Source: a virus. From it: a stretch of DNA of 64,000 nucleotides. Of the stretch, positions 9,152 to 57,814 are shown one piece after another (position 1 is the first letter of the stretch; each line of letters opens with the position of its first letter). Location: positions 4,585 through 68,584 of IMG/VR virus record IMGVR_UViG_3300042519_001902; one strand, 5' to 3'. The translations under genes and the position numbers were made by a program. The notes under the pieces are model-generated. The model did no database searches and was not told the origin of the DNA. It saw nothing but the letters and a program-made list of their open reading frames with translations.

Positions 9152-9608
9152 TTGTGTTGTAGATGTCGAAGCCGCCGCCTCCGCGACGCCCGACGTTTTG
9201 CTTTAACTCTTTCCCGATCTTCGACAGGCGGATCTTCGCCTCATCGATGACCAAATACTTTTCGCGGGCGCTGATCCGCGTCTCGCGAACGCTGCACATG
9301 CGGCGCATGTGGCGTTGGATGGAGTGCTCCCGGAGGATGACTCCCTTCTCTTGCCGAAGTTCTCGCTCGGCGATCTTCGCCTGGGTCATCAGCTCTTGGT
9401 ACTTCGTGTCCAGAGCATTGGCTTTCAAGGTGGCTTCCTTCTCGCGGGCTTTCGACTCGACGATGCGGAGTTCGTACCGAGCGATTGCCGACCGCATCTC
9501 GTCGATGGCCCGGTCTTGGTCGCAGATCAGGGACATCTCCTGCTCCATGTTGTCGAACAGGTAGCCGAATTTCTCTGGGATCTTGGTCAGCATGGGGATG
9601 GCGCTCAT
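9129..9608 (-). CDS. Coiled-coil hypothetical protein
   Basis: ATGA overlap with the upstream gene; heptad-rich. Confidence 0.6.
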   Translation of the reverse strand: MSAIPMLTKIPEKFGYLFDNMEQEMSLICDQDRAIDEMRSAIARYELRIVESKAREKEATLKANALDTKYQELMTQAKIAERELRQEKGVILREHSIQRHMRRMCSVRETRISAREKYLVIDEAKIRLSKIGKELKQNVGRRGGGGFDIYNTNETETQP

Positions 9609-13129: not shown

Positions 13130-14040
13130 TTTATTGCATTGTTGTCTGATACCAACGGATAACAACCGCTGGAAAGTTGAAGCGCGTGGGCTTCGTTGAG
13201 GAGCGTGCGGAACGCTAAGCGGCACGTAGCTGGGACGACTCCGTTGCCGAGGAGGCGGAGCTCATCGGTACGATTGTCGCCGGCGAGGCACAGCTCGGCA
13301 TAACCCAGCCCACGGGTAGACCCATGAGCGTCTCGACCCAGCGGGGGTTGAGCGCAAGCGACACGGGGCGGCTCCCATTCGTGCTGAGGTTGACCCGGAC
13401 GACTGGGCCACTCGCCATCTCGGCGGCGATCACACCCACCAACCGATCCTTCCGGTTGCGGTGACTCCCGTCGGGGTTCTTCCCGTCCGGTGAGCAGCCG
13501 GTGGTATCCTTCCAGTCGCGTGTCGTGGCGGTGGGCCAGGACGAAGATGCGCTTTCGCTGGTGGGGCGCGCCCACTTCAGCCGCGCTGAATATGCCCCAC
13601 GCCGTAGCGTAACCGATTCGGTCCAGCTCTGCGATGACGTCGCGTAATCCGAGGGAGATGTGACCCTCGACGTTCTCGAAGAAGCAAAGCTCGGGTCGCA
13701 TGAGGACAATTCCATCTGCGATCCAAGGCCAGAGGTGACGGGGGTCGTCTCTGCCGAGGCGCTTGCCGACGGTACTGAACGGCTGGCAGGGGTACCCGCC
13801 ACTGAGGATATCCACTCGGTCTCGAAAGCTTTCCCACGGGAAGGATCTAAGATCCGTCCACAGAGGTGCCGAGTCCATGAGTCCCGCTTCCATTTTCGCG
13901 ACCAAGTTCGCAGCGGCAAAGGCTTCGATCTCACTAACAGCGATTGTGCGCAGACCTTGGATTGCTCCTCGGAGTCCGAGATCAATGCCGCCGTACCCTG
14001 CACAGAGGCTAACGTGTGTAACGACTTTGGAAGTATCCAT
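13126..14040 (-). CDS. C5 DNA cytosine methyltransferase, alpha polypeptide
   Basis: Motif I SLCAGYGG, IV GGYPCQPFS, VI ENV, VIII PHQRKRIF, X LGNGV. Confidence 0.93.
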   Translation of the reverse strand: MDTSKVVTHVSLCAGYGGIDLGLRGAIQGLRTIAVSEIEAFAAANLVAKMEAGLMDSAPLWTDLRSFPWESFRDRVDILSGGYPCQPFSTVGKRLGRDDPRHLWPWIADGIVLMRPELCFFENVEGHISLGLRDVIAELDRIGYATAWGIFSAAEVGAPHQRKRIFVLAHRHDTRLEGYHRLLTGREEPRRESPQPEGSVGGCDRRRDGEWPSRPGQPQHEWEPPRVACAQPPLGRDAHGSTRGLGYAELCLAGDNRTDELRLLGNGVVPATCRLAFRTLLNEAHALQLSSGCYPLVSDNNAIK

Positions 14041-15029: not shown

Positions 15030-15289
15030 GCGTCGACCCTCCTTGCTAGGCGGTGGTCGTAATCGTCGCCGGGATTGATGACGACGGATCGGACCGGAGT
15101 CCCGTCTTTCGGGAACATCCAGATGTCCTGCGCCAGATAGCCGCTGAGGCAGCACCCCTTGTAGTAAGCGTGGTAGCTGATGCCCACCTCGTCGGGCAAA
15201 TGGGCCGTGGCTTTGCGGAATTCACCGAGCGTGAGTTTCGTCGGCGGTGTCGGAGCTGGAGTTGGAGTTGGAGTGATGTCGGTGCTCAT
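15026..15289 (-). CDS. Hypothetical protein
   Basis: ATGA coupling at both ends. Confidence 0.6.
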   Translation of the reverse strand: MSTDITPTPTPAPTPPTKLTLGEFRKATAHLPDEVGISYHAYYKGCCLSGYLAQDIWMFPKDGTPVRSVVINPGDDYDHRLARRVDA

Positions 15290-15525
15290 GTGCTGGCCTT
15301 CTTCCGTGCGCGAAGCATCGCGTCAGCGAGCGCGTAGGCTTCTCCCGGCACCCACCCTGAACTGTTCGACGTGTAATTCCCGGCCATGATTCCGGCTAGA
15401 GCCTGACCTGCGAGGTAGTCGCGCAGGGTCATACCGTCTTGGCCGTGCAAGGTTGTGGCGCCGCTGGTGCCGCGTGACTCTGGACGAGGAAACGCCGGGC
15501 CTCCGTCGTTGATTGGTGTGCTCAT
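15286..15525 (-). CDS. Conserved small phage protein
   Basis: INDGGPAFP...GMTLRDY.A.QAL.G...AY..ADAML.AR. Confidence 0.8.
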   Translation of the reverse strand: MSTPINDGGPAFPRPESRGTSGATTLHGQDGMTLRDYLAGQALAGIMAGNYTSNSSGWVPGEAYALADAMLRARKKAST

Positions 15526-15800
15526 GTGATTACAGCTATGCTGTCTCTGACGTTTATTGATCTGGCTTTACCCGACATGACACAGCGGGGCTGCGTCTTG
15601 CGGGTGCGGGACCTGACGGGAACGCGACAATCAACGCCGTTAACAATCAGGCATTGATCGCGGTAGTGGATGGACAAGCGCGGCTCACCAGCGGACAGCG
15701 AGGCGGGCTTGTTGTAGTGGAAGTAGAACACGGCGGGCTTGGGCTTTGATACCGTGTAGCCACCGCTCCTCTCCCCGAAGGCGTAGTCGGATAGGTTCAT
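15522..15800 (-). CDS. Conserved small phage protein
   Basis: FYFHYNKPAS..SIHY...C..V.C.VP..QPRCVM.G. Confidence 0.7.
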   Translation of the reverse strand: MNLSDYAFGERSGGYTVSKPKPAVFYFHYNKPASLSAGEPRLSIHYRDQCLIVNGVDCRVPVRSRTRKTQPRCVMSGKARSINVRDSIAVIT

Positions 15801-18569: not shown

Positions 18570-19267
18570 TAGGCAGCAGCCGCGATGGTGAGCGAGGCGA
18601 GTACGTCCTTAGCCCGCACCCCGAAGCACGCTTCGGCGGCAGAGGTGTGACCGATCCGTGAACGCAGCGCGCCGTAAGCGAACCACGAACGCAGCGAGAT
18701 CCGCAGCGCGGGGTCAGGGTTAACGCAGCTACCCTGCGCAGCGTTGCGTAGATCCTCGGGCAACGCGGCGATGGCGTTGGGGTTCGGATCGGTGACCTCT
18801 ATGGTCACAGGGAAGCGGTCCTGCAATGCAGGCGGCAGGTCTGCGGGCACCCCGTTCATCGTGCCGATGCACTGGAAATCCTTGTGCGGATAGACGGTCT
18901 CACCCGTGGGCAAGGTCATCATGGCCGAGGGGCCGTCGTCGAGGAGCGACAGGAAGAACGAGAGCGTGTCGCCCGAAGCCTTGTCGATTTCGTTGACCAC
19001 GAGCCGGTCGCCATTGCGCCACGCCTTGAGAGCGGGGCCGTCCTGCCAGATGAACTCGCCACCCTTGGGTACGTAGTGCCCGCGCAACTCGGCGGAGGGC
19101 ATCTCGTCGGTGAGGGTCACGTTGTGGATGCCGCCTGCGCCGCCCGAGTGGGGCTCGTGGATGGCGACGTACGATTTGCCCGTGCCGGGAGGACCGTATT
19201 GCAAGATGCGGCCCGTGTTCTTGATGAGGAGCTTCGTGAGTTCCCAGTTGGTTTTGTTCTTAGCCAT
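18569..19267 (-). CDS. MoxR/CobS-like AAA+ ATPase
   Basis: GPPGTGKS, WQDGP, LVVNEID, GTMN, AL.DRF. Confidence 0.9.
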   Translation of the reverse strand: MAKNKTNWELTKLLIKNTGRILQYGPPGTGKSYVAIHEPHSGGAGGIHNVTLTDEMPSAELRGHYVPKGGEFIWQDGPALKAWRNGDRLVVNEIDKASGDTLSFFLSLLDDGPSAMMTLPTGETVYPHKDFQCIGTMNGVPADLPPALQDRFPVTIEVTDPNPNAIAALPEDLRNAAQGSCVNPDPALRISLRSWFAYGALRSRIGHTSAAEACFGVRAKDVLASLTIAAAA

Positions 19268-19336
19268 ATTATTTTGGATTACCTATCGTTACCTGACGTT
19301 TTGTTTTAGTATCCGTTAACAACGCAACGGAAAAGT

Positions 19337-19447
19337 TTAGTCATCTCTGTCGTCCTCGTCGTCCGACGAGGTGCCAATGAACGGCCACGCGATCGCGATC
19401 ACTAATGCTACGACTACGAATAGGGCGGCGTTGATGATCGGTTTCAT
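19337..19447 (-). CDS. Small membrane peptide with acidic tail
   Basis: Translated by hand: MKPIINAALFVVVALVIAIAWPFIGTSSDDEDDRDD. Confidence 0.5.
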   Translation of the reverse strand: MKPIINAALFVVVALVIAIAWPFIGTSSDDEDDRDD

Positions 19448-19456
19448 GGGCCGGTG

Positions 19457-19846
19457 TTAGTACTCCGAGGGCAGCATCAGGGTGAGTCCGCCGAGCTCGT
19501 TGCGTACGGCCCAGACCGTGATGCCCTCATCGAGGGGGAAGTCGCTGTACTCGATGAACTGTGACGCCAGCGTGTTGTCGTTGCCGTCCTCGGCACTCAA
19601 GCGCCAGCCGTCGTCGCCCTTCACCAGCTTCCAGACTTGGAAGTCTTGCTTACGGAAGACGGGGTCTTGCTTGTACGAGGCAATGGCATCCATCAGCCAG
19701 TAAGCGTCGCAGTTCTCGGCGAGGTAGAGCGTGCCGTCAGTGAGCAGGCAGTTCCTAAATAACGGGGACCACTTGGTCCACGTCTCGGTGCTGGAGAACT
19801 GGCCGAGGTTAGTGCGGATCTCCGAGGGTGTGCTCGTGGTGCTCAT
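19457..19846 (-). CDS. DUF6876-like protein
   Basis: LLTDG..YLAE...AYWL.DAIAS...FQVWKL...Q.IEYSDFPL...LPSEY. Confidence 0.8.
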   Translation of the reverse strand: MSTTSTPSEIRTNLGQFSSTETWTKWSPLFRNCLLTDGTLYLAENCDAYWLMDAIASYKQDPVFRKQDFQVWKLVKGDDGWRLSAEDGNDNTLASQFIEYSDFPLDEGITVWAVRNELGGLTLMLPSEY

Positions 19847-20222
19847 CGCGCACCTCCTGCCAGTGCGAGGGTCACCACGATCTCGGCGGGCTTGGGTGCC
19901 GGTGCCGATACGGGAGTGGAGAGCACGACGATTCGAGCGTCCCCTAGACGCAGGACTTTCGTTAAGTGGGCGAGAGCGTACGTGCCCTCCTTCTCGACCC
20001 AGCGCCAGCGGGCTTTTCTGCCCCGCCATCGGGTCGCCGTCATGCCTGCGACGATCCAGTCACCGTCTATGCGTCCGGTCGGACGGCGATGACGGGGAGG
20101 CGTGCCCGGAATCTTAGGCGGCAGCGGAGCACGCCACCTCGTTTGGCCCTTCTCATGCATGACGAAGTCTCCGTACACACAGGGGAGGTGACCGTAACTC
20201 ATCGCGCACCTCCTGCCAGTGC
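19842..20222. repeat. 25-bp exact direct repeat at two gene junctions (19842-19866, 20198-20222)
   Basis: CTCATCGCGCACCTCCTGCCAGTGC x2. Confidence 0.9.
19843..20202 (-). CDS. Hypothetical protein
   Basis: AGGAGG and ATGA coupling at both ends. Confidence 0.6.
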   Translation of the reverse strand: MSYGHLPCVYGDFVMHEKGQTRWRAPLPPKIPGTPPRHRRPTGRIDGDWIVAGMTATRWRGRKARWRWVEKEGTYALAHLTKVLRLGDARIVVLSTPVSAPAPKPAEIVVTLALAGGAR

Positions 20223-20426
20223 CGACTCTAAGGCGTCGGACATCGTGAAGGTCCACGCGTCGGTCAGGGTGAACTCATCACGGAGGCGAAGCGAGCGACG
20301 GTCCGCCAGGACCGTGCGAGCTGAACTACATGTCGTCATGGCTACGATCTCGTTGTGATCGAGGGTGGCCGTATCGAAAGCGGTCGGATATTTGACCGCG
20401 CTGCTGCTGACTATTGTTTTTGTCAT
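20199..20426 (-). CDS. Hypothetical protein
   Basis: Ends in ALAGGAR, like the next gene. Confidence 0.55.
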   Translation of the reverse strand: MTKTIVSSSAVKYPTAFDTATLDHNEIVAMTTCSSARTVLADRRSLRLRDEFTLTDAWTFTMSDALESALAGGAR

Positions 20427-20537
20427 TGGGTTTATTGACCGACTCGTGATGAGTCGGAAGTTTGTGGCGTGTGCCGAAAGGGATTGCCGACAACGTGACG
20501 CGAACCGTTGGGTCCGGTAGTGGTGGCGGCGTGAAGA

Positions 20538-20687
20538 TCACGGAAAGAAAAAGCCCACAGCGATGTGGGCGCAGAGCAGCGCGAACGCTGCGATTACGAC
20601 GACGCCGAGGATCCGCTCGGTGGTCGTGGTGGAGTGGGGTGGGGTCGCCGCTCTCTTATTTTCGCGGCAGGAAAAGGTAACATTCAT
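20538..20687 (-). CDS. Small membrane protein
   Basis: C-terminal hydrophobic helix; downstream of TTGACT and the operator motif. Confidence 0.4.
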   Translation of the reverse strand: MNVTFSCRENKRAATPPHSTTTTERILGVVVIAAFALLCAHIAVGFFFP

Positions 20688-20745
20688 GATTACTTCATGC
20701 TTAGGATCGTTGTCGGATAACAATCATTAACAAGTCAAGCCCGTG

Positions 20746-20967
20746 TTAATAACACACGGGCATCGACGTCACGATGGGGCGCTCAGCGTTGACGATGCTG
20801 CGGCGCAGCGCGTCGAGATTCGTGATCGGTGCGGACTTCGTGCGGTAGCCTTTGCCTTTGCACGTTGGAGTGCGGAAGGACGTGGTCGCTCTCGACCAGC
20901 CCGTGATGTCGCCGAAGCGGATGGATTTCGGGCGGTCGTGATCTAACGTAGCGTGGTGGTGTTTCAT
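20746..20967 (-). CDS. Small basic early protein
   Basis: MKHHHATL...; ATGA overlap with the upstream ORF. Confidence 0.5.
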   Translation of the reverse strand: MKHHHATLDHDRPKSIRFGDITGWSRATTSFRTPTCKGKGYRTKSAPITNLDALRRSIVNAERPIVTSMPVCY

Positions 20968-21122
20968 GAGGTGATCCATGCGTTGAACGCTAGCGTTCGG
21001 GTTTCTTTCGCTGCCTCGAAGATCGCTGCCGCGTCGGGGCAGCGGATGTTCTTCAGGTAGTGGTTGAATGCAGCGGTCGCTGCCTTGTCGGCTGACTTGT
21101 AGATCGGATACAGTGATTTCAT
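20964..21122 (-). CDS. Small early protein
   Basis: Translated by hand: MKSLYPIYKSADKAATAAFNHYLKNIRCPDAAAIFEAAKETRTLAFNAWITS. Confidence 0.55.
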   Translation of the reverse strand: MKSLYPIYKSADKAATAAFNHYLKNIRCPDAAAIFEAAKETRTLAFNAWITS

Positions 21123-21131
21123 ACGGGCACG

Positions 21132-21173
21132 AAAAAGCCACCGACACGGGATTCATTGTGTACGGTGGCTTTT
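21132..21173. terminator. Bidirectional terminator-like hairpin
   Basis: AAAAAGCCACCG...CGGTGGCTTTT. Confidence 0.7.
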
Positions 21174-21179
21174 ATGGTG

Positions 21180-21945
21180 CCCCCGTTCGTGAGAACGGGA
21201 GCGAACACACGCGGTCGCAGCGGTCGCGTGTGAATGGGGTCGTCGTGCTGCGTTAAACGACGAATGCCCGCACGTTCTTTTAACGTCGGGCGCTTCCTTT
21301 CTCGATGAGGTGTGGCGCGGACAAGATTCTGAGCGTGTGCTGAACTTGTCTGGCGGATCGGCTTTGTTTTTACAGGCAAACCGTCGACCTGTTTTGTTAC
21401 ACCGCATTTGTCAGCGGTGAGTCAGTGTCCCCAGATTCATTTTGAACACGGCGCGAAGTGTCTTTCAGTTGCCAAGTGACGCGGTGAGTCCAAACGAAGT
21501 GCCGAGAGCAGAGTTTCGTTCGTGTTACACCGCGCAATTGCGCCGAGGTGTGTCGAAGTGGGTGAGTGCGAGGCGAAGCGCACGTTGAGCCGATTCCTGC
21601 TTTGCGTGACGGCTTGCGCCGTGACGATGCGGGCGAGGTTTCTTGTTATTCCATAACGCGGAACGCATAGCGTTCTAATCCCAAAACGGTCGCGGACGCT
21701 ATCCTTTGCGGCGAGTTGGCTTTGCGTGCATAGCACGCGGGCGAGTGTGAAGGTCGGAGAAACCTGATCGTGATATCACGCGGGCGATTTGAAACGTGCG
21801 ACCGCATAGCGGTCGCGACCTTCGCCCGCATAGCGGGCGGCGGAAATGGCGTTGCAAATCTGACTTGGCGTGACTGTAAAGAGCGGGCGAGACGCATTGC
21901 GGCGGCTCAAGCTATTCCCCCGCCATGCGGGCGAGGGAATAGGTC
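21180..21945. other. Hairpin-dense non-coding block (structured RNA or DNA)
   Basis: More than 12 consecutive stem-loops, four with identical GC-ATA-GC tops; no credible ORF. Confidence 0.65.
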
Positions 21946-21959
21946 GAAACGTCGCGGCT

Positions 21960-22409
21960 TTACTTGGCGGCGGCGGCGGCTTCCAAGGTCGCGACCTTCG
22001 CCCGGTACTTTTCAAGCAACGCGGCGGCCTTGGCGGCGGTCTTGGCGGCGGCGGCGGTTGTGTCGACTAGTCGACAATTCCACCCCGTCTTGGTCTTGGT
22101 AACTCGTGCGACCGCGACCGTTGACAAGGTCGCAAGGGCGGCCAATGCGGCCTTGTTTTCCACCCTATGAGACGCAAGGGCGGCTTCAAATTCCGCAAGG
22201 GCGGCGGCTTTTGTTTCGCCCGCCGCGACGCGGGCGAGGACGTACGTGCGCTTGCTTGCATTGCCTTGCGCCAATTCGGCGGCGGTGATTTTGTCATGCC
22301 TTGGCAAAACTAGGGCGGCGGTTTTTTCGGGCGACGCTACTTGAGACGCGGTCGCAATAAGGGCGGAGGCTGATTCTGAGGTCATTTTCGGATGGGATGG
22401 ACTTGTCAT
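21960..22409 (-). CDS. Ala/Lys-rich protein, probable first early gene
   Basis: Strong GCC codon periodicity; first ORF of the minus-strand block. Confidence 0.65.
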   Translation of the reverse strand: MTSPSHPKMTSESASALIATASQVASPEKTAALVLPRHDKITAAELAQGNASKRTYVLARVAAGETKAAALAEFEAALASHRVENKAALAALATLSTVAVARVTKTKTGWNCRLVDTTAAAAKTAAKAAALLEKYRAKVATLEAAAAAK

Positions 22410-22499
22410 TTGCGGTCTCGGCGACGTGCCGAGATTCCATAAGTACCTTTCCCGCTAGAAGATAGATAAGCCCTGTTATCGAATCGGGTTTATGTAACA

Positions 22500-22600
22500 C
22501 CCTCGGGGCCACCGACCCTGGCTTTGGGGGGACTGGCTCTCGGGGTCGAGGGGGGTGCCTGGCTTTTTATATATATGGGGGCCGTCTGTACTTTCCAGAG
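22500..22600. other. Possible genome terminus / packaging region
   Basis: G runs flanking TTTTTATATATAT at a strand-switch point. Confidence 0.35.
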
Positions 22601-22690
22601 GTCGAATTCGGTCCCGAAAGTCGTTTTGGCGGTTCCGGGTTGCCCGATATCGGGTGTGATCCTATCGTTTTCGGTAACAACACCCGTTTT

Positions 22691-23014
22691 ATGAACCTCA
22701 AGCTGCTTGGTCTGCGTTTTAACCGTCGTCTGGAGTGGCTATCCCTGGTCAAATACGAGGGTCGGAGGGTCGGATGGGGGTCTGTCCTCGTTTCGGTCGT
22801 CAAAGCGGCTAGGATTGCAACGGTTGGGCGGTCTGTGTGGCGGCAAAGGATGCGGGACTGCGCGGTTTGCCCGATTTACGACCGCCGGAGGCACGCCTGC
22901 CGGAAAGGAACCCTCGGTTGCGGCTGCTGGATGCCCCTCAAGGCGATGTTTCGGGGACCGCAGTGCTGGGGCCGCTCGGTTTTACCGGACGGGAAGTTCG
23001 GTCACCGGGGGTAA
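22691..23014 (+). CDS. Cys-rich Zn-binding protein
   Basis: R...C..CP...C....GCGC.MPLKA....CW. Confidence 0.65.
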   Translation: MNLKLLGLRFNRRLEWLSLVKYEGRRVGWGSVLVSVVKAARIATVGRSVWRQRMRDCAVCPIYDRRRHACRKGTLGCGCWMPLKAMFRGPQCWGRSVLPDGKFGHRG

Positions 23015-23109
23015 AGCGGTGTCGGCAAATCATTCGCCGTATCTGCCGTTTTAATCGCCTTTTGTAAGTTAATCAAAAGCAGCCAGCTATCCCCTCTTAG
23101 GCATTACGG

Positions 23110-23205
23110 CTATTACTTATATATATATATTATATGTATAGTAGGTATAGGTATTAGGGAGCCCCCACCGGTACCGCTGGGGACCGCTGGGGACCGCTGG
23201 GGGCA
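23110..23205. repeat. Candidate replication origin: TA-rich tract plus 3x ACCGCTGGGG
   Basis: (TA)n at 23118-23140; 10-bp tandem repeats at 23173-23202; downstream of the primase-helicase. Confidence 0.55.
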
Positions 23206-23434
23206 GGGGTTGAAACCATTTGCCGTTCGCCGGAATGCCGTTTTATGAGTCATGTCATTATCTGTTAATCGATAACGAAACGGCCAATGCTTTCGGCTAT
23301 CTGCCTCAGTTGCCGTCGACGCAGTCCATACCCTGCCTCCCGGCCCCAAACGCAGTCTTCGGCCTGCCTTGAACAAAAAGACCCAGACCGGGGTTAGCCG
23401 ATCTGGGTCAGGGGGTGCGGAACTGCGGGTTACG

Positions 23435-23830
23435 TCACTTGAACGCTTCGAGGATGGCCGTCTCGGTCTGTACCCGGACACGCCCCAGCTCCTCGCTATG
23501 CCGACGGTTGAACTCCGAGACGGCCCAGTCCGAGAACGCCCGGGAGAACAGCTCACCCATACTTACGCGACCGCAGGTAACGCGGGCAGGCGAGGCGGAT
23601 CCAGCAACGAAACCGTCCAAATCCCGCTCGTTTACGTCGCCAACGGACAAGGCGATGCCCTTTTCACGGTTAGCGGCCCGCAGGACGTGGGCACCTTCGG
23701 AGTGATCGAGGAACCACTTCGAGGGGTCTTCTTTGACGCTCTTCATGAGGGCGACCTCGTGGGGAGCCATGACCGGGTCGGACACCCGACGTTTGAGGAA
23801 TGGGAGGAATGGGAGGAATGTACTGATCAT
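23435..23830 (-). CDS. Hypothetical protein
   Basis: Follows the primase gene; 9-bp repeat gives FLPFLPFL. Confidence 0.55.
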   Translation of the reverse strand: MISTFLPFLPFLKRRVSDPVMAPHEVALMKSVKEDPSKWFLDHSEGAHVLRAANREKGIALSVGDVNERDLDGFVAGSASPARVTCGRVSMGELFSRAFSDWAVSEFNRRHSEELGRVRVQTETAILEAFK

Positions 23831-23840
23831 GATTGGTAGG

Positions 23841-26009
23841 TTAAGCAGCCTGTTTGAGGACGAGTGATGGTTTATGGATGATGAAGATGCGGGTGTCCCC
23901 GTTGATCCTACCCCGCTTCATCCATTCGCAGTCGGTCACTAGAGCCTTCTTGATCGCGGCCCCGAACGAGTTGCGGTTGAACCCCGATGCCAGACACGCG
24001 GTGTCGGTGTCGTTCTTGAGCGACTTCAACAGTTCGGACGTGTTACCCTTCCACGGGTCCGTCGCTTTGAGGGGCGTGAACTTCTCAATCCACATCTCGA
24101 TCATCTCCAAGACCCCGACGGAATCGGAAGCCGAACGGGCTTCATCGAGCAGGACCGAGTCGTGGTAAGACTTCATCCCGAACCGATCATCCCGTTCGAT
24201 GGTGTCGGGGAGTTCCCAATCAAGGAGCCAGCGCAGGAACTGAGGCAGCTCGGCATCGACTGCCGCTTGGTTGGCCGAGACCGATCCGGCTAGGGATGCG
24301 ATATTGTTACCCGTCCGCACGAGGATGACCTTGTCGAGAAGCGACTGGTCTGTGTCGGGCAAGATGCCGAGGGACACGGGGTCTTCGTTCAAGGTGCAGA
24401 CGAATCGGCCCGTAAACGAACACGACCCGCTGTAGCCGAACTTCTTTTCGTAGGGCATCGACGGGTTAGCCACGCACGCTTTAATCAGACCGGAGAACTT
24501 CTGGTAGGCTTTACGGTCCCCGAGGATCGTCGAATCATCGAGGGACCACACCGAGTGGTCGAACATCGAGGAGTTAAACCGACTGCCGTCGACGAAGTAA
24601 CTGCGAGCATCGGCGCAGCCACCGAAGATCGTACCGAGGATTACCCGAGAGAAGAACGTCTTCCCGGTACCGGGAGGACCGGCGATGAACAGGGCGTGAC
24701 CCCGGTCGGGTTTACCCTCGTGGCACAACTGGTAGTAGATTTTGAGCCAAGCGAGGACGACCTCAAGGGTAGTGGCATCGACCCACAGGTTGGTCAGGTA
24801 GTCCGCGATGAACGGAAAGGACTTCCCGAACATGGGGTCGACCTTCTCGGCGCACGGCTTCGCGAGGTTGCACTGAGCGTTGTTGAGGTACTTCTTACCT
24901 TCCCAAGTCACGACCTGCTCGGGCCGATGAGGGAAGGGGATCGCCCCTATGATGCGACGGTGCATCTCCAAGTGGAGGAGAACCTGATCGACCTCGGAGA
25001 GGGCATCGCCTTTGCGCGCAACGTCCGAGAGCAGGTAGACGCCCTTCAAATGCCGCCGCGCATGGGTCGCTTCGCACAGATCCCACGATCCATCGGGCAG
25101 CTCGCGGTAGTAGTTCTTGGCCTCGTCGCAGTACATCTCGGCGATGGCCTTGCCGATCCGGTCTTCCATGTACTTGGAGGTGAACGCACGGCCTAGAACG
25201 TCGGTCCAAGACAGGAACCCGCGATCTCCGGTGAACGCCGTCATACCCGTCTTGCGCACCAAGGCGGCGGTCGGGTTATCGGCGGTCATGTCCCAGAACC
25301 GAACCCCACGAGCGCCTTCCTCGAACTTACCGCTCCAGCGACCGGGGAACTGTCGCTCGACCTCGGCGGCGACGATATCAAGCGGGATCTCCATTTCCTT
25401 ATCGAAGTCCTTCGACTTCTTGAGGACGTCGTTGAGCCACAGATGGAGGGTCTCTTTGCCGATGAAGGCGTCCTTATTGACGGTCCACTTGTCACCGGAG
25501 ACGTAGACCTGATCGGATTGAAAGTACGCTTTCTCGTCGAGGCCCGGGAAGATAACGCTGAGGTTCAACTCACGTTTAGCGCGCTTCAAGAACGCGTCGT
25601 ACGTGTCATCGCCGTAGTGGAAGATCGGTCTCTCGAAACGCCAGATCATGCGGATGCCGCCCCGACGGGTACGATTCCACGCGAAGCACGGGAACCGAGC
25701 GGGGATCCGGGCGAGGCCCAACGGTATCTCGGAGTCCTCGGCCTCGACGTCGTAGTCGGTGATGATGCCGTAGACGAGTTGGGCTTTGTTGGCTGAGCTG
25801 ACGCGCTGCCCGGGGTTTTCTCCTTCTATCAAGGAGAACAATGGCACCATGGAGGTGGGCTCGGACATCCAGCGTTTGTAGCCATCACGATCGTCTTTGA
25901 ACGAAGGTATCGCAGAAGCGGTGTACCATGGCTCGCGGTGTTCGCTGAGGATGACGGGACTGGCGAGGTTCGCGACGGCGAAGGCGCGGAAGGGTGGGGG
26001 TGTGCTCAT
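23841..26009 (-). CDS. Primase-polymerase / SF3 helicase
   Basis: N-terminal TDYD and RT..GGIR; C-terminal GPPGTGKT, FNS, LDD and TLN. Confidence 0.85.
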   Translation of the reverse strand: MSTPPPFRAFAVANLASPVILSEHREPWYTASAIPSFKDDRDGYKRWMSEPTSMVPLFSLIEGENPGQRVSSANKAQLVYGIITDYDVEAEDSEIPLGLARIPARFPCFAWNRTRRGGIRMIWRFERPIFHYGDDTYDAFLKRAKRELNLSVIFPGLDEKAYFQSDQVYVSGDKWTVNKDAFIGKETLHLWLNDVLKKSKDFDKEMEIPLDIVAAEVERQFPGRWSGKFEEGARGVRFWDMTADNPTAALVRKTGMTAFTGDRGFLSWTDVLGRAFTSKYMEDRIGKAIAEMYCDEAKNYYRELPDGSWDLCEATHARRHLKGVYLLSDVARKGDALSEVDQVLLHLEMHRRIIGAIPFPHRPEQVVTWEGKKYLNNAQCNLAKPCAEKVDPMFGKSFPFIADYLTNLWVDATTLEVVLAWLKIYYQLCHEGKPDRGHALFIAGPPGTGKTFFSRVILGTIFGGCADARSYFVDGSRFNSSMFDHSVWSLDDSTILGDRKAYQKFSGLIKACVANPSMPYEKKFGYSGSCSFTGRFVCTLNEDPVSLGILPDTDQSLLDKVILVRTGNNIASLAGSVSANQAAVDAELPQFLRWLLDWELPDTIERDDRFGMKSYHDSVLLDEARSASDSVGVLEMIEMWIEKFTPLKATDPWKGNTSELLKSLKNDTDTACLASGFNRNSFGAAIKKALVTDCEWMKRGRINGDTRIFIIHKPSLVLKQAA

Positions 26010-29379: not shown

Positions 29380-29483
29380 GATGGGTGGAAAAGAAGGTGG
29401 CTTTTGATATCCCGGAGCCACCGAACCGGGCTTTTCCTCATGTTGTCATCCGAACCCATCGGATAACAAAGTTAACAAACAGC

Positions 29484-30206: not shown

Positions 30207-30257
30207 GATGTTGGGATGTCTGTTGGTTTAAGTTGTTATAAAATAACAACCAAAAGT

Positions 30258-41071: not shown

Positions 41072-41110
41072 GTGTTAGTATGCGTTGTTAAAAACTAACA
41101 ACAACATACT

Positions 41111-44184: not shown

Positions 44185-44217
44185 CCGCAGGTGTTATCCG
44201 ATAATAAAAGGTAACAA

Positions 44218-47291: not shown

Positions 47292-50249
47292 ATGGCCTAC
47301 ACACTCAACGACTCTGTACTCGCAACCGTCACCGCAGACTTTGCGACGGATGACCACTTTGGTCTCGACGGAACGACGAACGGTCCACGCAAAGTTCTGT
47401 GCTCCCGCTTTGTCCTTAACGACAAGAGCTACGCGGATCCGTCGTGGATCACCTCGTTGGCTGCGTCGAAGGTCGGTCTGGGTAGCGTCGAGAACAAATC
47501 CAGCGCGACGATTCGCGGCGAGATTACGTCGGGCAACGTCACGACCGCGTTGGGTTTTACGCCGTATGACGCGACCAATCCCAGCGGATACATCACCTCA
47601 TCTGCGCTGTCCCCGTATTTGACCAGCGCCACCGCCGCCAGCACGTACCAGACGGCACTCGTATCCGGCACGTCGATTAAGACGATCAACGGCAACTCGG
47701 TCCTCGGCTCGGGCGACATTACGATAACGGCGAGTTCCGTCACGAACGCAGCCGTCATTTCGGCGCTCGGCTTCACGCCCTACAACGCGACGAATCCCAA
47801 CGGATACACGGCGAACGTGGGCACGGTTACGGGCGTGACGGCGACCGGCCCCGTGGTATCATCGGGCGGCACGGCTCCGGTGATCAGCATGGCGGCGGCG
47901 ACCGCGAGCGTGCCGGGCTACCTCACCGCAGCGGACTGGGCGACTTTTAACGGCAAGCAAGCGGCGTTGGGTTTCACGCCCTACAACAGCAGCAATCCGA
48001 GCGGATACATCACGTCGAGCGGTTCGATCAGCGGCAACGCGGCGACAGCAACGACGGCGGCAAATGTCAGCGCGGGAGCAGACCAAGCCATCGTAAACCA
48101 AAACAACGGAAACGCCTCAGCTTGGTATGGTCGCATAGTGTCCAAAAACTCTACCAGCGACCGAGCCGCTTTCTTGGGAACGTATGGTTCGATAGCTGGC
48201 GTTTTTGCGCATAACAACGCAATGACCGCGTGGGCTGATCTATACATTAACACCGTAGATGGCAGCAGCGGCGGCATTATTCGGATGACCTCCAGCGTGT
48301 TTATGGCGGGCAATCAAGCTCTGCACGCCGGTAACTACACCAGCTATTCCCCATCCCTGACCGGCTCCGGGGCGAGCGGGACGTGGGGCATCAGCATTAG
48401 CGGCAACGCATCGACCGCTTACGGGCTCAATGTTCACACCGCCAGAAACAACGAGGCGAACAAGGTCGTCAGAACGGACGCCAGCGGGTACATTCAAGCG
48501 GGATGGATTAACACCGACTCCGGCGACAACGGCACGACAGCAATTAGCCGGGTGTATGCCTCTCACGACGGGTATGTCCGCTACTACACACCGACGAATT
48601 TCAGAACGGTTCTTGATGTTCCGACGAGGACGGGCGGCAGCGCGAGCGGGAGCTGGGGCATCTCCGTCACGGGCACCGCATCGAACATCACGGCCTACAC
48701 GATCAACCAGAGTCTCGGCACCGGAAACGGCCCCACCTTCGATCAGGTCTACGTCGCCGGTTGGTTCCGCAACGTCGGAGATCAGGGGTTGTACAACAGC
48801 ACCCACGGACACCACTTCTACGCAACCAGCAACCAATACTTTAACCTGGCCGGGAATGACGGTTCCGTGTGCGGTTTAATCCTTCGTACCGGAGGTCATC
48901 AGGGCGCGATTCGCGGTTACGTGTACGCAAATAATGGCAACAGCGTCGGCTTCCTCTCTCAGGACGCTAACTGGCAGATTCGCTGCACCAACAGCGAGGT
49001 CGAACTCTACGACACTACCTACGCTAACGATTTTCGGACATACATCACGTACGACCGCAACGACACGTCTTACTTCCTCGATCCCAATTCAAGCAGCACA
49101 CTAAGGACGATTACCAACAGAGGGTGGCTCTACATCAACGAGAACTACGGGCACTCCGTGGTGGGGGTGTACGCTTCGGAACGGTATCAGGGCGTGTTTG
49201 CGATGGGAGACTCGTACAAACTTCCTGCGGACGGAACGAGTACCGGCGGATTGTACGGTCTTGCTTGGTCGCACCCCAACGCGGGCGGCGCGGCAAGCAA
49301 CCTCAACGATCACGGGCTTTTGGTCATAAATGCCGGTTCTTTCAAGGCCGCGATCTCAGCCAGCATCCGGTGCGTGACGGATATGCGTGCCCCGAATTTC
49401 ACGGACTACAACGACTCGGCGTACTACATCGACCCCAATTCAGACTCTAACTGGCAAGGTCTGACGCAAAGAGGTAAGGCCCAAACTGGTCTGACCGGGC
49501 GGAGTAACTGGAGACGCCCAGCTATCACAAGCGATACCGCTTACTGGGGCGGTCAAATGGGTTGGGGACAAGAAAACCTAGATACTGTCTTTGACTGGGG
49601 TACTGGCTTTTGGGACACTTGGGGCAACCCCGCCAATCAGCCGACCGGCACCTCTCATTGGACGGGGATTAACTGCCAGCACCATGTTTCGTATGGCTGG
49701 CAGATGGCCGGGGGCGCTGGTGATCCAGCCCTAACTTTCATCCGAGCCCGCTGGGGCGGTGGATGGACACCTTGGTACAAAGTCGCCATCTACGGAAGCA
49801 ACACCGAGGCGAACCGAACTTTCTACGCGCAGCAGTTCATCGATGCCGAAAATACGGGATACTATTGTGACCCGAACAACACCAGCCGCCTAAATGCGGT
49901 GGTCGCGGACAACCTCTACGCCTATGGCACGGTCACCGCGTACTACTCCGACGACCGCCTCAAGACTCGTTTCGCCAACATCGTCGGCGCACTCGACAAG
50001 GTCTGTTCGTTAAACGGGTTTTTCTACGTCGGTAACGCAGTGGCCCAGAGCCTCGGTTACAAATCGAAAATGGAGGTCGGTCTGTCGGCTCAGGAGATGC
50101 AGCGCGTCCTGCCCGAGGTCGTCGTACCCGCGCCCGTCGATGAGACGTACCTGACGATCCAGTACGACCGCGTCGTGCCGCTCCTCGTCGAGGCCATCAA
50201 AGAACTTCGTTTAGAACTCAACCAGCTCAAGTCCCTCGTAAAATTATGA
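47292..50249 (+). CDS. Tail fiber with C-terminal intramolecular chaperone (peptidase S74)
   Basis: ALGFTPY repeats, YY.DPN repeats, YSD.RLK...GLSAQE..VLPE.V...Y..VVPLLVEAIKEL. Confidence 0.9.
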   Translation: MAYTLNDSVLATVTADFATDDHFGLDGTTNGPRKVLCSRFVLNDKSYADPSWITSLAASKVGLGSVENKSSATIRGEITSGNVTTALGFTPYDATNPSGYITSSALSPYLTSATAASTYQTALVSGTSIKTINGNSVLGSGDITITASSVTNAAVISALGFTPYNATNPNGYTANVGTVTGVTATGPVVSSGGTAPVISMAAATASVPGYLTAADWATFNGKQAALGFTPYNSSNPSGYITSSGSISGNAATATTAANVSAGADQAIVNQNNGNASAWYGRIVSKNSTSDRAAFLGTYGSIAGVFAHNNAMTAWADLYINTVDGSSGGIIRMTSSVFMAGNQALHAGNYTSYSPSLTGSGASGTWGISISGNASTAYGLNVHTARNNEANKVVRTDASGYIQAGWINTDSGDNGTTAISRVYASHDGYVRYYTPTNFRTVLDVPTRTGGSASGSWGISVTGTASNITAYTINQSLGTGNGPTFDQVYVAGWFRNVGDQGLYNSTHGHHFYATSNQYFNLAGNDGSVCGLILRTGGHQGAIRGYVYANNGNSVGFLSQDANWQIRCTNSEVELYDTTYANDFRTYITYDRNDTSYFLDPNSSSTLRTITNRGWLYINENYGHSVVGVYASERYQGVFAMGDSYKLPADGTSTGGLYGLAWSHPNAGGAASNLNDHGLLVINAGSFKAAISASIRCVTDMRAPNFTDYNDSAYYIDPNSDSNWQGLTQRGKAQTGLTGRSNWRRPAITSDTAYWGGQMGWGQENLDTVFDWGTGFWDTWGNPANQPTGTSHWTGINCQHHVSYGWQMAGGAGDPALTFIRARWGGGWTPWYKVAIYGSNTEANRTFYAQQFIDAENTGYYCDPNNTSRLNAVVADNLYAYGTVTAYYSDDRLKTRFANIVGALDKVCSLNGFFYVGNAVAQSLGYKSKMEVGLSAQEMQRVLPEVVVPAPVDETYLTIQYDRVVPLLVEAIKELRLELNQLKSLVKL

Positions 50250-55227: not shown

Positions 55228-57814
55228 CAAAACCCAGTTCGATGACCGCATCGCGGCCACGTTCTCGACGATCCCGTCGAAGTATCCGCCGCTGCCCAAC
55301 GATGTCCTGAAGCGGTTCCCGTCGCTGGAGAGCTGGCAGACGGAGCAGTCGCGCCTCATTGCTCGCGTAAGAGAGGCGCTGGACTCGATGGGCTCGGACT
55401 TCGGGATTCCCCTCAACAAGGCGCAAGCTACCCAGGAACTCCTGTCGAAGACGGTGGCGACGCAGTACGACGAGCTGTCGGCCCGCATCACGTCCGAGAC
55501 CACGATCCTAGTGGACGAGAACCAGGCACTCGCGCAGCGCACGACCACGATTGAATCCACGATCAACACGCCGACTACCGGTCTGTTGGCTCGGATCAAC
55601 ACGGTTGAGACCACCTACGCGACCAAGGACTTCGCTCTAGCGAAGAAGGAAGAAGCCATCACGGCAGCGGTGACATCGGCGAACGGCTACACGGCTGGAC
55701 AGATAACGTCTCTGTCTTCGGTTTACGCCACGCCTACGTTCGTCGAGACGAAAAAGTCCGAGGCGATAACCGCTGCGGTGACTTCGGCGAATAGCAGCAC
55801 TGACGGGAAAATCAGTGCTCTGTCCTCGGTCTATGCCACTCCTTTGTTCGTTGAGACGAAGAAGACTGAAGCCATCGCGGCAGCGGTGACTTCGGCGAAT
55901 AGCAGTACTGACGGGAAAATCAGTGCTCTGTCTTCGGTTTACGCTACGCCTACGTTTGTTGAGACGAAAAAGTCCGAAGCAATCTCGGCAGCGGCGACCG
56001 CAGCGACAGGCTACACCGATGGTCAGATAAGCAGCCTGTCCTCGGTTTACGCCACGCCTTTGCAGGTCACGTCCACAGTTAACAACCTCATCTCCGCTTC
56101 CGTCGGGAGCACATCCGGTACTATCGGAGCAGCCATCGAGACCGAGCGACTGGCGAGGGCAAACGCCGACGGTAACCTGTCCGGTAAATTCAGCCTCAAG
56201 GTGACCGCCGGAAACGTGGTCACGGGCATGAACATCACCAGCTCCACAGGGGCTGGGACGGATGTCAGCTCGGTCACGTTCCTCGCGTCTGAGTTCAAGA
56301 TTTTCAACTCAACCACCGGCATCGCGCCCTTTGCCGTGGTAGACGGGGTGGTGATTGCGCAGAACATGTTGATCAGCGGAACGCTCCTGGTTAGCGGCAG
56401 CATCGCCGCGAGCCGGTTGAACTTCGTCCCCGTTAGCTCGACCAACGTAGTCGCTTCGATCAACGCCACGGCTGAAGGCATCCAGATCAGCGGTTCTAGA
56501 ATCCAGATTAACGGCAGTACTACATTCTCAAGCGGGTACGATCCTTCGACGAAACTCACACCCGGCAGCGCAGCGGCTGACATCAACGCAAACACCACGA
56601 CAATCAGTGGTGGGAAGATCACGGCGCGTTCTATTTCAGCGAGTCAGATTCAGGCGGGAACGATTACGGCTAACGAGATCTTTGCTGGGACGATTACGGC
56701 AGCGCAGCTCAACTTTACGCCCGTCACATCAACCAACGTCATCGCCTCGATCAACGCGACGATTGAGGGCGGGTTGCGGATCACCGGGTCAAAGATCGAG
56801 ATCAGTGGCAGTACTACATTCTCAAGCGGGTATGATCCTTCAACGAAACTCACACCCGGCAGCGCAGCGGCTGACATCAACGCAAACACCACGACAATCA
56901 ACGGTGGGAAAATTACGGCAAATAGTATCACCGCTTCCCAGATAGACGTATCGACCCTTTCGCTGAGCTCTAGTCAGATCGGCGGGACCGCAGTTACCCT
57001 ATCCGCAATTGGTTCGGGGCTAAACATCACCAGCGGCGGGGTAATTTTGAGCGGAACTTCGGCTATCCGAAGCAGTAACTACGTTACCGGTTCGGCGGGT
57101 TGGGCGATAAAGGCCGACGGATCTGTTGAGTTCTCCAGCGGTACGTTCAGGGGAAGCCTCTCCGGTGCCACGGGTACGTTTGCTGGAGCTCTCGACGTCG
57201 GAACAGGGAGGGAACGAAAGCGGATAGAACCTTCAGGGTTGTATGTCGGTGATCTGGTTGCATTTAATAATGTTGGGTTAGACACGGTCCTTTATTTTAC
57301 CAGCTATATTACTGCGTCGAGGACGATGTACTTTCGCAGTGGCGGATATACGCCTGAGATTCGCATAGGCGATAGCTTGTACACGGTTTTTGAAAATCTT
57401 GGTTTTTCCGCAAGTCACGACGGGGCTTTTGCTCGTAGTATGACCGTCGGCCTCAGCGGGTTGACTGTACGGGGCGGTGGATTGAACGTACAGAACGGCG
57501 GGGTAAACCAGGCGACGATCAGTGCCGCCGGCGACGCAACTTTTTTAGGGGCCGTTACCACGACCAACAACACCTACTCGGGCAGTTTCTCCAGCAACGG
57601 AAACGCCACGTTCGGATCGCTGACGAACACGCCTTTCTCCAACGCAGCCATCGATGCATTTACCAACACGACCTTCTATTTTCACCCGAACGGCAACAAC
57701 AGCGTGAGCGGCGGTGAAGACGGCGGCACAGTGGGCGCGACCACCGGCACCTACATCGCAATTCGGTACAACGGACGCACCGTCTGGGTGCCCTTCTTTA
57801 CTGCTTTACCTTGA
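55214..57814 (+). CDS. Tail fiber / host-specificity protein
   Basis: Coiled coil, 36-aa repeats, V.GM...F.A..F.I..PF.V, ITA..I repeats, GW.I..DG..EF. Confidence 0.8.
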   Translation: MALSDKTQFDDRIAATFSTIPSKYPPLPNDVLKRFPSLESWQTEQSRLIARVREALDSMGSDFGIPLNKAQATQELLSKTVATQYDELSARITSETTILVDENQALAQRTTTIESTINTPTTGLLARINTVETTYATKDFALAKKEEAITAAVTSANGYTAGQITSLSSVYATPTFVETKKSEAITAAVTSANSSTDGKISALSSVYATPLFVETKKTEAIAAAVTSANSSTDGKISALSSVYATPTFVETKKSEAISAAATAATGYTDGQISSLSSVYATPLQVTSTVNNLISASVGSTSGTIGAAIETERLARANADGNLSGKFSLKVTAGNVVTGMNITSSTGAGTDVSSVTFLASEFKIFNSTTGIAPFAVVDGVVIAQNMLISGTLLVSGSIAASRLNFVPVSSTNVVASINATAEGIQISGSRIQINGSTTFSSGYDPSTKLTPGSAAADINANTTTISGGKITARSISASQIQAGTITANEIFAGTITAAQLNFTPVTSTNVIASINATIEGGLRITGSKIEISGSTTFSSGYDPSTKLTPGSAAADINANTTTINGGKITANSITASQIDVSTLSLSSSQIGGTAVTLSAIGSGLNITSGGVILSGTSAIRSSNYVTGSAGWAIKADGSVEFSSGTFRGSLSGATGTFAGALDVGTGRERKRIEPSGLYVGDLVAFNNVGLDTVLYFTSYITASRTMYFRSGGYTPEIRIGDSLYTVFENLGFSASHDGAFARSMTVGLSGLTVRGGGLNVQNGGVNQATISAAGDATFLGAVTTTNNTYSGSFSSNGNATFGSLTNTPFSNAAIDAFTNTTFYFHPNGNNSVSGGEDGGTVGATTGTYIAIRYNGRTVWVPFFTALP

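Follow-up and report, generated by a model that had tools for sequence, protein, structure and literature searches.

We analysed a stretch of 64,000 nucleotides (nt) from the IMG/VR virus record IMGVR_UViG_3300042519_001902 and present here the results for an array of four small hairpins (a to d) that share a GC-ATA-GC top and lie in a spacer among the leftward genes of this phage. The whole stretch is referred to as the window. It corresponds to bases 4585-68584 of the record of 68,584 base pairs (bp), and all positions are window positions unless another record is named. A 127-bp terminal repeat closes the record into a circle, so that its ends do not define a first-injected end. The genes between ~8 and 33 kilobases (kb) point leftward and include those for a helicase, a PD-(D/E)XK nuclease, PolA, a RuvC-like resolvase, a DPBB protein, a DUF5906 primase-helicase, an AAA_5 ATPase, a methyltransferase and a tyrosine recombinase. 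The genes from ~34 to 64 kb point rightward and comprise the terminase and the tail genes, one of them with a lambda-J-type tail tip domain. This rightward set ends with an open reading frame (ORF) of 3050 amino acids (aa), which runs from window position 63896 across the record junction to window position 4591 (23-9175 of the genome). The neighbour of the hairpin region in the replication module is the gene for the primase-helicase (23841-26009), a 722-aa protein for which DUF5906 is the only match. The initial annotation had located the hairpins upstream of the early genes. This location was not confirmed: the array sits halfway along the leftward genes, directly beyond the replication module and ~11 kb from the AT-richer region in which the divergent genes start (32.8-33.6 kb), and no ORF with a positive coding score follows within ~500 bp.

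Four hairpins with a constant tip in a non-coding spacer

The four perfect hairpins were recovered at the positions initially annotated both by reading the sequence and by an exhaustive scan. The constant GC-ATA-GC top, the differing stems and the perfect pairing that had been described apply to all four, and the GCGAAGC word reported at 21573 is present as well. Table 1 lists the individual features. The loop centres of hairpins a to d are at 21668, 21731, 21807 and 21831. Below the GC/GC core a further 4, 4, 6 and 5 bp, respectively, are perfectly paired, with different sequences in each case, and in hairpin b the third pair is swapped on both sides such that pairing is kept. All loops have the same orientation (plus strand ATA, minus strand TAT). 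Folded as single-stranded DNA, each of the four adopts its hairpin as the minimum-energy structure on either strand, with energies of -5.5 to -11.4 kcal/mol.

For the statistics we considered all perfectly paired hairpins whose stem has 6 bp or more and whose loop has 3 nt. The window contains 22 hairpins of this class; an ATA loop was only found in the four of the array and a TAT loop in none. Across the whole genome there are 23, compared to a mean of 22.4 in 300 first-order Markov simulations, and thus we see no global excess. The clustering is a different matter: four such hairpins within 200 bp were observed in none of the 300 simulations and three in 18 of them, without counting in the shared loop. 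The heptamer GCATAGC occurs nine times in the window, where 4.36 occurrences are expected, and four of the nine are located within 170 bp, all on the plus strand. Different perfectly paired stems under a constant tip are the signature of selection on pairing plus tip and are far from chance. The terminator scan does not list any of the four hairpins, and no T-run follows them; a terminator-like site in another part of the scanned region does have such a run. The hairpins are thus not terminators.

A fifth hairpin with a GC-ATA-GC top is found on the minus strand at 15532-15544 (ACAGC-ATA-GCTGT, 5-bp stem), 7 nt before the ATG of the gene at 15286-15525. It could be a chance occurrence, for which we estimate a probability of ~0.08; if it is a true signal, it reads AUA on the sense strand.

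The array lies within ~780 bp (21180-21960) that hold no credible ORF and are rich in further hairpins. We scored coding potential with codon log-odds trained on 20 long genes of the phage. The ORFs over the spacer scored between -0.17 and -0.39, compared to mostly +0.07 to +0.33 for the small genes that we took as real; a nearby gene for a Cys-rich protein scored -0.08 and was accepted as a gene through homology. The two spacer ORFs that were scanned gave no Pfam match. The GC content of the spacer is 0.58 and there is no AT-rich element in it. The predicted fold of 21590-21960 was more stable than that of shuffled sequences on both strands, with z-scores of -3.6 for the plus and -2.8 for the minus strand. 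Neither the covariance models of Rfam 15 (19000-24000, both strands, no matches at E ≤ 1) nor a tRNA scan detected a known RNA, and a sigma-70 scan returned no promoter-like sites in 20500-23000.

The hairpins are embedded in degenerate direct repeats of ~100 nt, which are ~50% alike and have only a 9-nt word in common. This word, the GCGGGCGAG box, is concentrated at the array: five of the six exact copies in the window, where 1.95 would be expected, lie within 610 bp (21629-22238), and all of them are on the plus strand. If the two near copies are included, the spacings between boxes are 108, 43, 51, 52 and 44 bp, each at most ~0.3 turn off a whole number of helical turns. The statistic for this helical phasing is marginal (~0.05, an estimate).

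We also compared the region with several known classes of repeated or hairpin elements, all of which were rejected. An array or a solitary repeat of the CRISPR type (clustered regularly interspaced short palindromic repeats) needs identical repeats of 28-37 nt with unique spacers, in place of a 9-nt word in diverged units, and in a CRISPR mimic the stems would not differ. Sites of the attC or integron type were dismissed as there are neither R/L boxes nor cassettes. The loops are too small for HUH nick-site hairpins and the stems too short for RNase III sites.

Table 1. Features at the hairpin array, in its surroundings and in related records (window positions except in the last row)
Feature	Position	Strand	Description
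Hairpin a	21661..21675	strand-neutral	GAACGC-ATA-GCGTTC, 6-bp stem, 3-nt loop
Hairpin b	21724..21738	strand-neutral	GCGTGC-ATA-GCACGC, 6-bp stem, GGGCGAG immediately after
Hairpin c	21798..21816	strand-neutral	GCGACCGC-ATA-GCGGTCGC, 8-bp stem
Hairpin d	21823..21839	strand-neutral	CGCCCGC-ATA-GCGGGCG, 7-bp stem; a GCGGGCG box copy forms the 3' arm
Four degenerate ~100-nt direct repeats	21590..21990		variable hairpin, then GCGGGCGAG, then G-GAAWWGG-TCG..AAAC
Exact copies of GCGGGCGAG	21629, 21737, 21883, 21927 (span 21629..21935), 22230	+	the copy at 22230 is inside the Ala-rich gene
Near copies of the box	21780, 21831	+	GCGGGCGAT at 21780, GCGGGCGGC at 21831
13-bp hairpin	21909..21946	-	just past the stop codon of the Ala-rich gene; U.G pair on minus is a C.A mismatch on plus
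Hairpin with ACGGC-TTGC-GCCGT core	21605..21626	strand-neutral	pairing survives six changes in the strain variant
GCGAAGC mini-hairpin word	21573..21579	+	absent from the strain variant (21575 G>C)
Terminator-like hairpin	21133..21173	-	11-bp arms, A5 before, T4-5 after; left border of the spacer
Gene for 149-aa Ala-rich protein	21960..22409	-	conserved right-hand neighbour; its stop codon is the right border of the spacer
TTGTTA-N5-TAAC palindrome	21643..21657	strand-neutral	copy of the dispersed gene-gap motif, 4 nt from hairpin a
TTGTTA-N16-TAACA-type palindrome	22473..22500	-	upstream of the Ala-rich gene; candidate promoter/operator of the unit
Other copies of the dispersed palindrome	44191-44217, 57819-57845, 63868-63894, 41085-41101, 30233-30249, 29443-29469, 13139-13165, among others		
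Gene for small Cys-rich protein	22640-23014	+	opposite strand, gene-poor stretch; start uncertain; weak PHROG 13558 match
(TA)n run, then three perfect ACCGCTGGGG repeats	23118-23202		between the primase-helicase operon and the Cys-rich gene
Conserved ~450-nt hairpin-rich leader in relatives	L266 15400-15900; L215 17085-17520; L237 7110-7560		upstream of a gene for 193-215 aa

Relatives, strain variation and neighbouring genes

On the basis of its PolA family the phage falls into a large uncultured group that has no cultured relative. Members of this family in genome collections belong to metagenome-assembled genomes of Verrucomicrobiota, at ~33% identity. Searches with the region and PolA did not find a near relative among 50,697 phage records, and the giant protein gave no match there. 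Near-identical DNA was present in 24 lake-water metagenome runs, and none of the runs listed as carrying it was an RNA run. Close relatives do exist, with PolA identities of 91% and 61-71% and giant-protein identities of 75-77%. IMG/VR scans with single proteins (the primase-helicase, PolA and the 77% homologue of the giant protein) gave no close relative, and in profile scans of contigs from metagenomes, viruses and genomes the PolA identity of the relatives never exceeded 48%.

For the strain comparison we used four DNA contig sets, which contained one divergent variant (run X20) at ~21417-21746 that ends before hairpins b to d. The region around the spacer (20800-22460) is a hotspot of strain differences, where X20 shows dense substitutions and skips 172 bp (20940-21113), 50 bp (21489-21540) and 126 bp (22328-22455).

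Among the more distant relatives, a 41-kb record (G001) with a PolA that is 48% identical keeps the order of the primase-helicase, the Cys-rich gene and the Ala-rich gene. Its spacer to the left of the Ala-rich gene is ~900 bp long and contains two perfect hairpins with different stems and near-identical 12-nt loops (11 of 12 positions); a cluster of GCATAGC is not found in G001. In three further relatives with a PolA identity of ~32% (L266, L215 and L237) the primase-helicase genes are followed by a hairpin-rich leader (last row of Table 1). In this leader 13 of the 82 predicted pairs are compensatory, i.e. both sides change and the pairing stays, as can be seen from the homologous hairpins CAACTCC-GAA-GGAGTTG, CAATCTC-TTC-GAGATTG and CAATCCC-GAA-GGGATTG. 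The sense strand of the leader carries G.U pairs and a UUCG loop. An Rfam scan of the L266 spacer showed nothing above noise. Structured spacers thus recur at this position across the group, and they look RNA-like where they are readable.

We then surveyed 187 loci of relatives (2.73 Mb) for clusters of hairpins with the same loop and different stems. With a stem of at least 6 bp and at least three distinct stems only L266 was detected. Lowering the stem length to at least 5 bp gave two loci (L266 with GAA four times and L236 with CGA three times) compared to none in one shuffle, and at least 4 bp gave six clusters compared to 1, 1 and 0 in three shuffles. Two clusters in L215 were discounted as most of their members are inside a coding gene. 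A pattern scan of viral contigs for two CGCATAGCG words resulted in 118 stretches. These were rejected as relatives of the array: every array of at least three hairpins with the CGC-ATA-GCG word among the 118 loci had identical stems, i.e. consisted of tandem repeats. A search of relatives for the stem-variable, loop-constant motif had been proposed as a check on the initial annotation. Its outcome was divided, since analogous arrays do occur in the same kind of spacer and their loops are different.

The spacer is flanked by features that may act in expression or replication. A dispersed palindrome, TTGTTA(YC)-N5 or N15-16-(G)TAACAA with the core GTTATCCGATAAC, has 29 core matches compared to 10.2 expected, and its TTGTTA-N5 or N15-16-TAACAA form reaches 44 strand counts compared to a null mean of 6.6. 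In several cases the palindrome ends 0-30 nt ahead of a start codon, and from its sequence and placement it is a candidate promoter or operator of the phage. Another dispersed palindrome, GGAACCTGAGGTTCTAA, precedes several genes in the relatives L266, L215 and L237. The Cys-rich protein is kept in G001 with 39% identity over 114 aa. The repeat region at 23118-23202 is a candidate replication origin or strong promoter; at the matching place G001 has an AT-rich run and a GC palindrome.

Elsewhere in the genome we noted two convergent tyrosine recombinase genes at 6317-7561 (plus strand) and 8138-9151 (minus strand), a pair that suggests a temperate or plasmid-like lifestyle. Many genes of the phage have no Shine-Dalgarno sequence, and the leaders are A/C-rich. 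The tail and tail-fibre genes contain in-frame tandem or dispersed repeats at 55641-56062 (108 nt, three times), 56420-56919 (spaced copies of ~290 nt), 60604-60801 (66 nt, three times), 63300-63432 (69 nt, twice) and 47547-48016 (spaced copies of ~200 nt).

Possible roles of the array

Most likely the four hairpins are recognised through their structure, either on a non-coding RNA or on single-stranded DNA. As a concrete form of such a role we tentatively favour a structure-specific platform for multivalent binding, located on the minus-strand RNA tail of the unit to which the Ala-rich gene belongs. The minus-strand unit would start before the Ala-rich gene (near 22500) and end at the hairpin with a run of five T on the minus strand (21173-21133), and the ~800-nt non-coding tail of that RNA would carry the four hairpins. 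Each ~100-nt repeat would carry one GC-clamped hairpin with a C-UAU-G triloop and, next to it, a C-rich box (CUCGCCCGC), and together the repeats may form a platform for one sequence- and shape-specific protein of the phage or of the host. The bound protein could control the stability, the processing or the read-through of the unit, or could itself be titrated. The second option of the initial annotation, protein-binding C-UAU-G loops of an RNA, comes close to this reading and stays open.

We ranked the RNA tail first for three reasons. The unit has promoter-like and terminator-like borders. There are U.G hints on the minus strand, one in the 13-bp hairpin at 21909-21946 and one in hairpin a of X20, where the changed closing pair can wobble on the minus strand but is mismatched on the plus strand. 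Furthermore the spacers of the relatives have a sense-strand RNA character. The non-coding setting, the selection on pairing plus tip and the hairpin-dense repeat build, all of which are shown, also speak for this reading. That RNA is the active form, that it comes from the minus strand and that it is bound by a protein are points that we infer.

A number of observations weigh against the RNA tail. All 27 of the 27 stem base pairs are Watson-Crick pairs, so the hairpins alone reveal neither the strand nor the molecule, and perfect palindromes suit readings at the DNA level just as well. The strand hints are in conflict: to the two for the minus strand we have to add one for the plus strand, as the hairpin at 21605-21626 keeps its pairing in X20 via a G.T pair on the plus strand. 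G001 points to the plus strand too, since a plus-strand hairpin with a T-run follows its constant-loop hairpins and would place the RNA on the other strand. The tip is not stable either. In X20 the stem of hairpin a is kept and its tip is lost (21669 A>G, 21670 G>A), and the loops of homologous hairpins vary in the L266 group (GAA, TAA, TTC). The constant loop may therefore hold only within one genome. The arrays of the relatives are analogous in place and build, and we do not claim homology to the array of the window. Triloops are also not the usual protein-binding loops of RNA. No binding protein was identified: the Ala-rich protein has only eight homologues in 1.84 billion representatives, and the best results of its fold search (Foldseek E of 1.4, VIA Z of 5.3) are background. 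Finally, the candidate promoter of the unit is a copy of the dispersed palindrome, whose promoter role we infer.

The rival that survives best is a set of replication signals at the DNA level, which we consider unlikely but would take seriously. The GCGGGCGAG boxes would be iterons for an initiator of the phage and the hairpins single-stranded initiation or loading sites for the primase-helicase, formed on unwound or lagging-strand DNA as in ssiA of RSF1010 or the complementary-strand origin of G4. The setting fits, with the array just past the genes for the helicase, the nuclease, PolA, the RuvC-like resolvase and the DUF5906 primase-helicase. So do the architecture, in which ~100-bp direct repeats build the stretch and the exact boxes are concentrated on one strand with a rough helical phase, and the all-Watson-Crick palindromes, which can form on either strand. 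Mini-hairpins are named at G4-type origins and in ssiA in the part of the review PMC13037366 available to us, and in L266 four CTGGTTGACC repeats lie ~200 bp away from the hairpins. On the other hand, the array is not next to an AT-rich unwinding element, a candidate that looks more like a conventional origin, with its own repeats and an AT-rich counterpart in G001, lies 1.3 kb away (23118-23202), and the loops are not GNA. Moreover the primase domain of the 722-aa protein is putative, given that it matched DUF5906 only, and the phasing is of marginal significance.

A further, rather improbable scenario is a non-N4 lineage, probably in Verrucomicrobiota-like lake bacteria, with DNA hairpin signals of its own. 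GC-clamped ATA triloops with variable stems on single-stranded or supercoiled DNA would be read by a protein without detectable similarity to known polymerases or primases, which would start transcription or DNA priming. If this were true, hairpin-type initiation signals would have arisen repeatedly and would not be peculiar to N4.

It is also conceivable, at a low probability, that the array has no dedicated function and that young duplicated palindromes in a fast-evolving spacer are kept perfect by hairpin-templated repair (quasipalindrome correction). This agrees with the accumulation of substitutions and indels in X20 and with units that are degenerate copies of each other. However, templated correction explains the perfection of the stems and not four different stems under one tip in one orientation, and structured spacers recur at this position in distant relatives.

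We regard double-stranded operators, where a dimeric protein would read a 7-9-bp core, (C)GC-ATA-GC(G), on duplex DNA, as very unlikely. The phage does use palindromic motifs in gene gaps, and identical palindromes of the CGC-ATA-GCG type occur as tandem sites in unrelated viral contigs. Yet a protein that reads the duplex has no need for a further 4-6 bp of perfect, site-specific symmetry. In site b the third pair is changed on both sides with pairing kept, and the four sites have a single loop orientation.

In the initial annotation the hairpins were compared with the promoters of phage N4, and promoters or entry signals read by an ejected protein were proposed. The N4 early promoters have a stem of 5-7 bp, a 3-nt loop and a constant GC-rich heptamer between variable inverted repeats according to the portion of PMC4496689 at hand. 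In the portions at hand of PMC4496689 and PMC13037366 the loops of N4 are GGA or GAA with a sheared G:A pair and a central purine. The analogy holds for the layout, namely the 3-nt loop, the short stems (6, 6, 8 and 7 bp) and the constant heptamer. A GNA loop is absent from all four hairpins on either strand (ATA on plus, TAT on minus) and without the required G the ATA loop cannot form a sheared G:A pair. Neither the 5' flanks (..aacgcg, ..ggcttt, ..aaacgt and ..gacctt) nor the 3' flanks share a word at a fixed distance, and there is no counterpart of the conservation from -17 to +1 in N4.

We looked for an RNA polymerase in the giant protein with Pfam, PHROGs, sequence and profile searches of the PDB, a motif scan and Foldseek on a model of residues 1101-2250, and none of these detected one. 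The 3050-aa protein belongs to no Pfam or PHROG family, and the PDB search with its sequence and with a profile of its 14-sequence family gave three weak matches, none of them an RNA polymerase. The words R-x3-K-x7-YG, [HY]D[SAC] and DxDxD, patterns of T7-like and two-barrel polymerases, are absent from it. A structure model of residues 1101-2250 (1150 of the 3050 residues) is all-helical with a mediocre predicted local distance difference test score of 61.6 and had no Foldseek matches at E ≤ 0.001. Conserved across the family is an HExxH motif (H1207-E1208-x-x-H1211). Remote homologues carry LPD39 and FtsK_gamma, and the ESM atlas provided only weak leads to LPD families (0.83-0.86). These similarities point to a polyvalent protein of the ejected type that has a metallopeptidase module, rather than to a polymerase. 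Among the other proteins of the genome that were scanned, no polymerase or sigma factor for transcription was found. The lambda-J-type tail tip domain suggests a virion of a type different from N4. An N4-like hairpin layout together with a giant protein is insufficient to infer a virion polymerase.

The least probable role is thus that of N4-type promoters, extruded from supercoiled or single-stranded DNA and read leftward by a virion polymerase with the plus strand as template: the build (like that of N4 P1-P3 in the portion of PMC4496689 at hand), the common loop orientation and the giant protein encoded after the tail genes speak for it, but it has to contend with the lack of a detectable polymerase, the ATA loop, the unconserved flanks, hairpins c and d that are only 24 nt apart, the tail tip domain and ~500 bp of leftward DNA that are non-coding. 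The proposal of hairpin promoters read by an ejected protein is not supported, and no credible gene follows the array.

Comparison with known systems

To our knowledge signals that are read by their shape and a few tip bases are rare, the known examples being the N4 promoters, the ssi sites and boxB. Lambda boxB, which is bound by the N protein, and the coat-protein operators of MS2 and Qbeta have loops of 4-7 nt or bulges, with one or two such sites per genome and an established protein partner. The array resembles these RNA sites in that the loop and the closing pairs would be recognised and the stem is free as long as it is paired. It differs from them in presenting four triloops in tandem repeats.

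The array is like N4 P1-P3 in its short and perfectly paired stems, its 3-nt loop, the GC-rich heptamer that stays constant as top, the variable inverted repeats below it and the clustering of copies in one orientation. In contrast to P1-P3 it has an ATA loop, no conserved flanks or initiation region and no following genes, and neither a virion RNA polymerase nor an N4-like gene set was detected in this phage.

Small GC-rich hairpins that form on single-stranded DNA near iteron-like repeats and replication genes are also a feature of ssiA and ssiB of RSF1010, which are used by the RepB' primase, and of the G4-type complementary-strand origin (PMC13037366, as far as its available text goes). 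Those are described there as single sites of ~40 nt with GNA tops, one per strand, whereas here we found four hairpins of 15-19 nt in one orientation with an ATA top and without an adjoining AT-rich region. The PeSL cassettes of T4-type phages are likewise a repeated stem-loop regulatory module in a variable phage region (PMC2839356, PMC4122927, both in part). According to the same portions of these sources PeSLs flank single small genes and combine a promoter with a terminator; the array has no genes between its hairpins and no T-runs. Apart from N4, a full-text literature search on DNA hairpins with a conserved loop, or on cruciforms, between phage genes brought up nothing relevant, which is not proof of absence.

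The array is thus a statistically solid new example with a new tip, GC-ATA-GC, from an uncultured group of lake phages. A partner protein, if found, would provide a new module that binds RNA or single-stranded DNA hairpins, or a handle on the start of replication or the timing of genes in this group.

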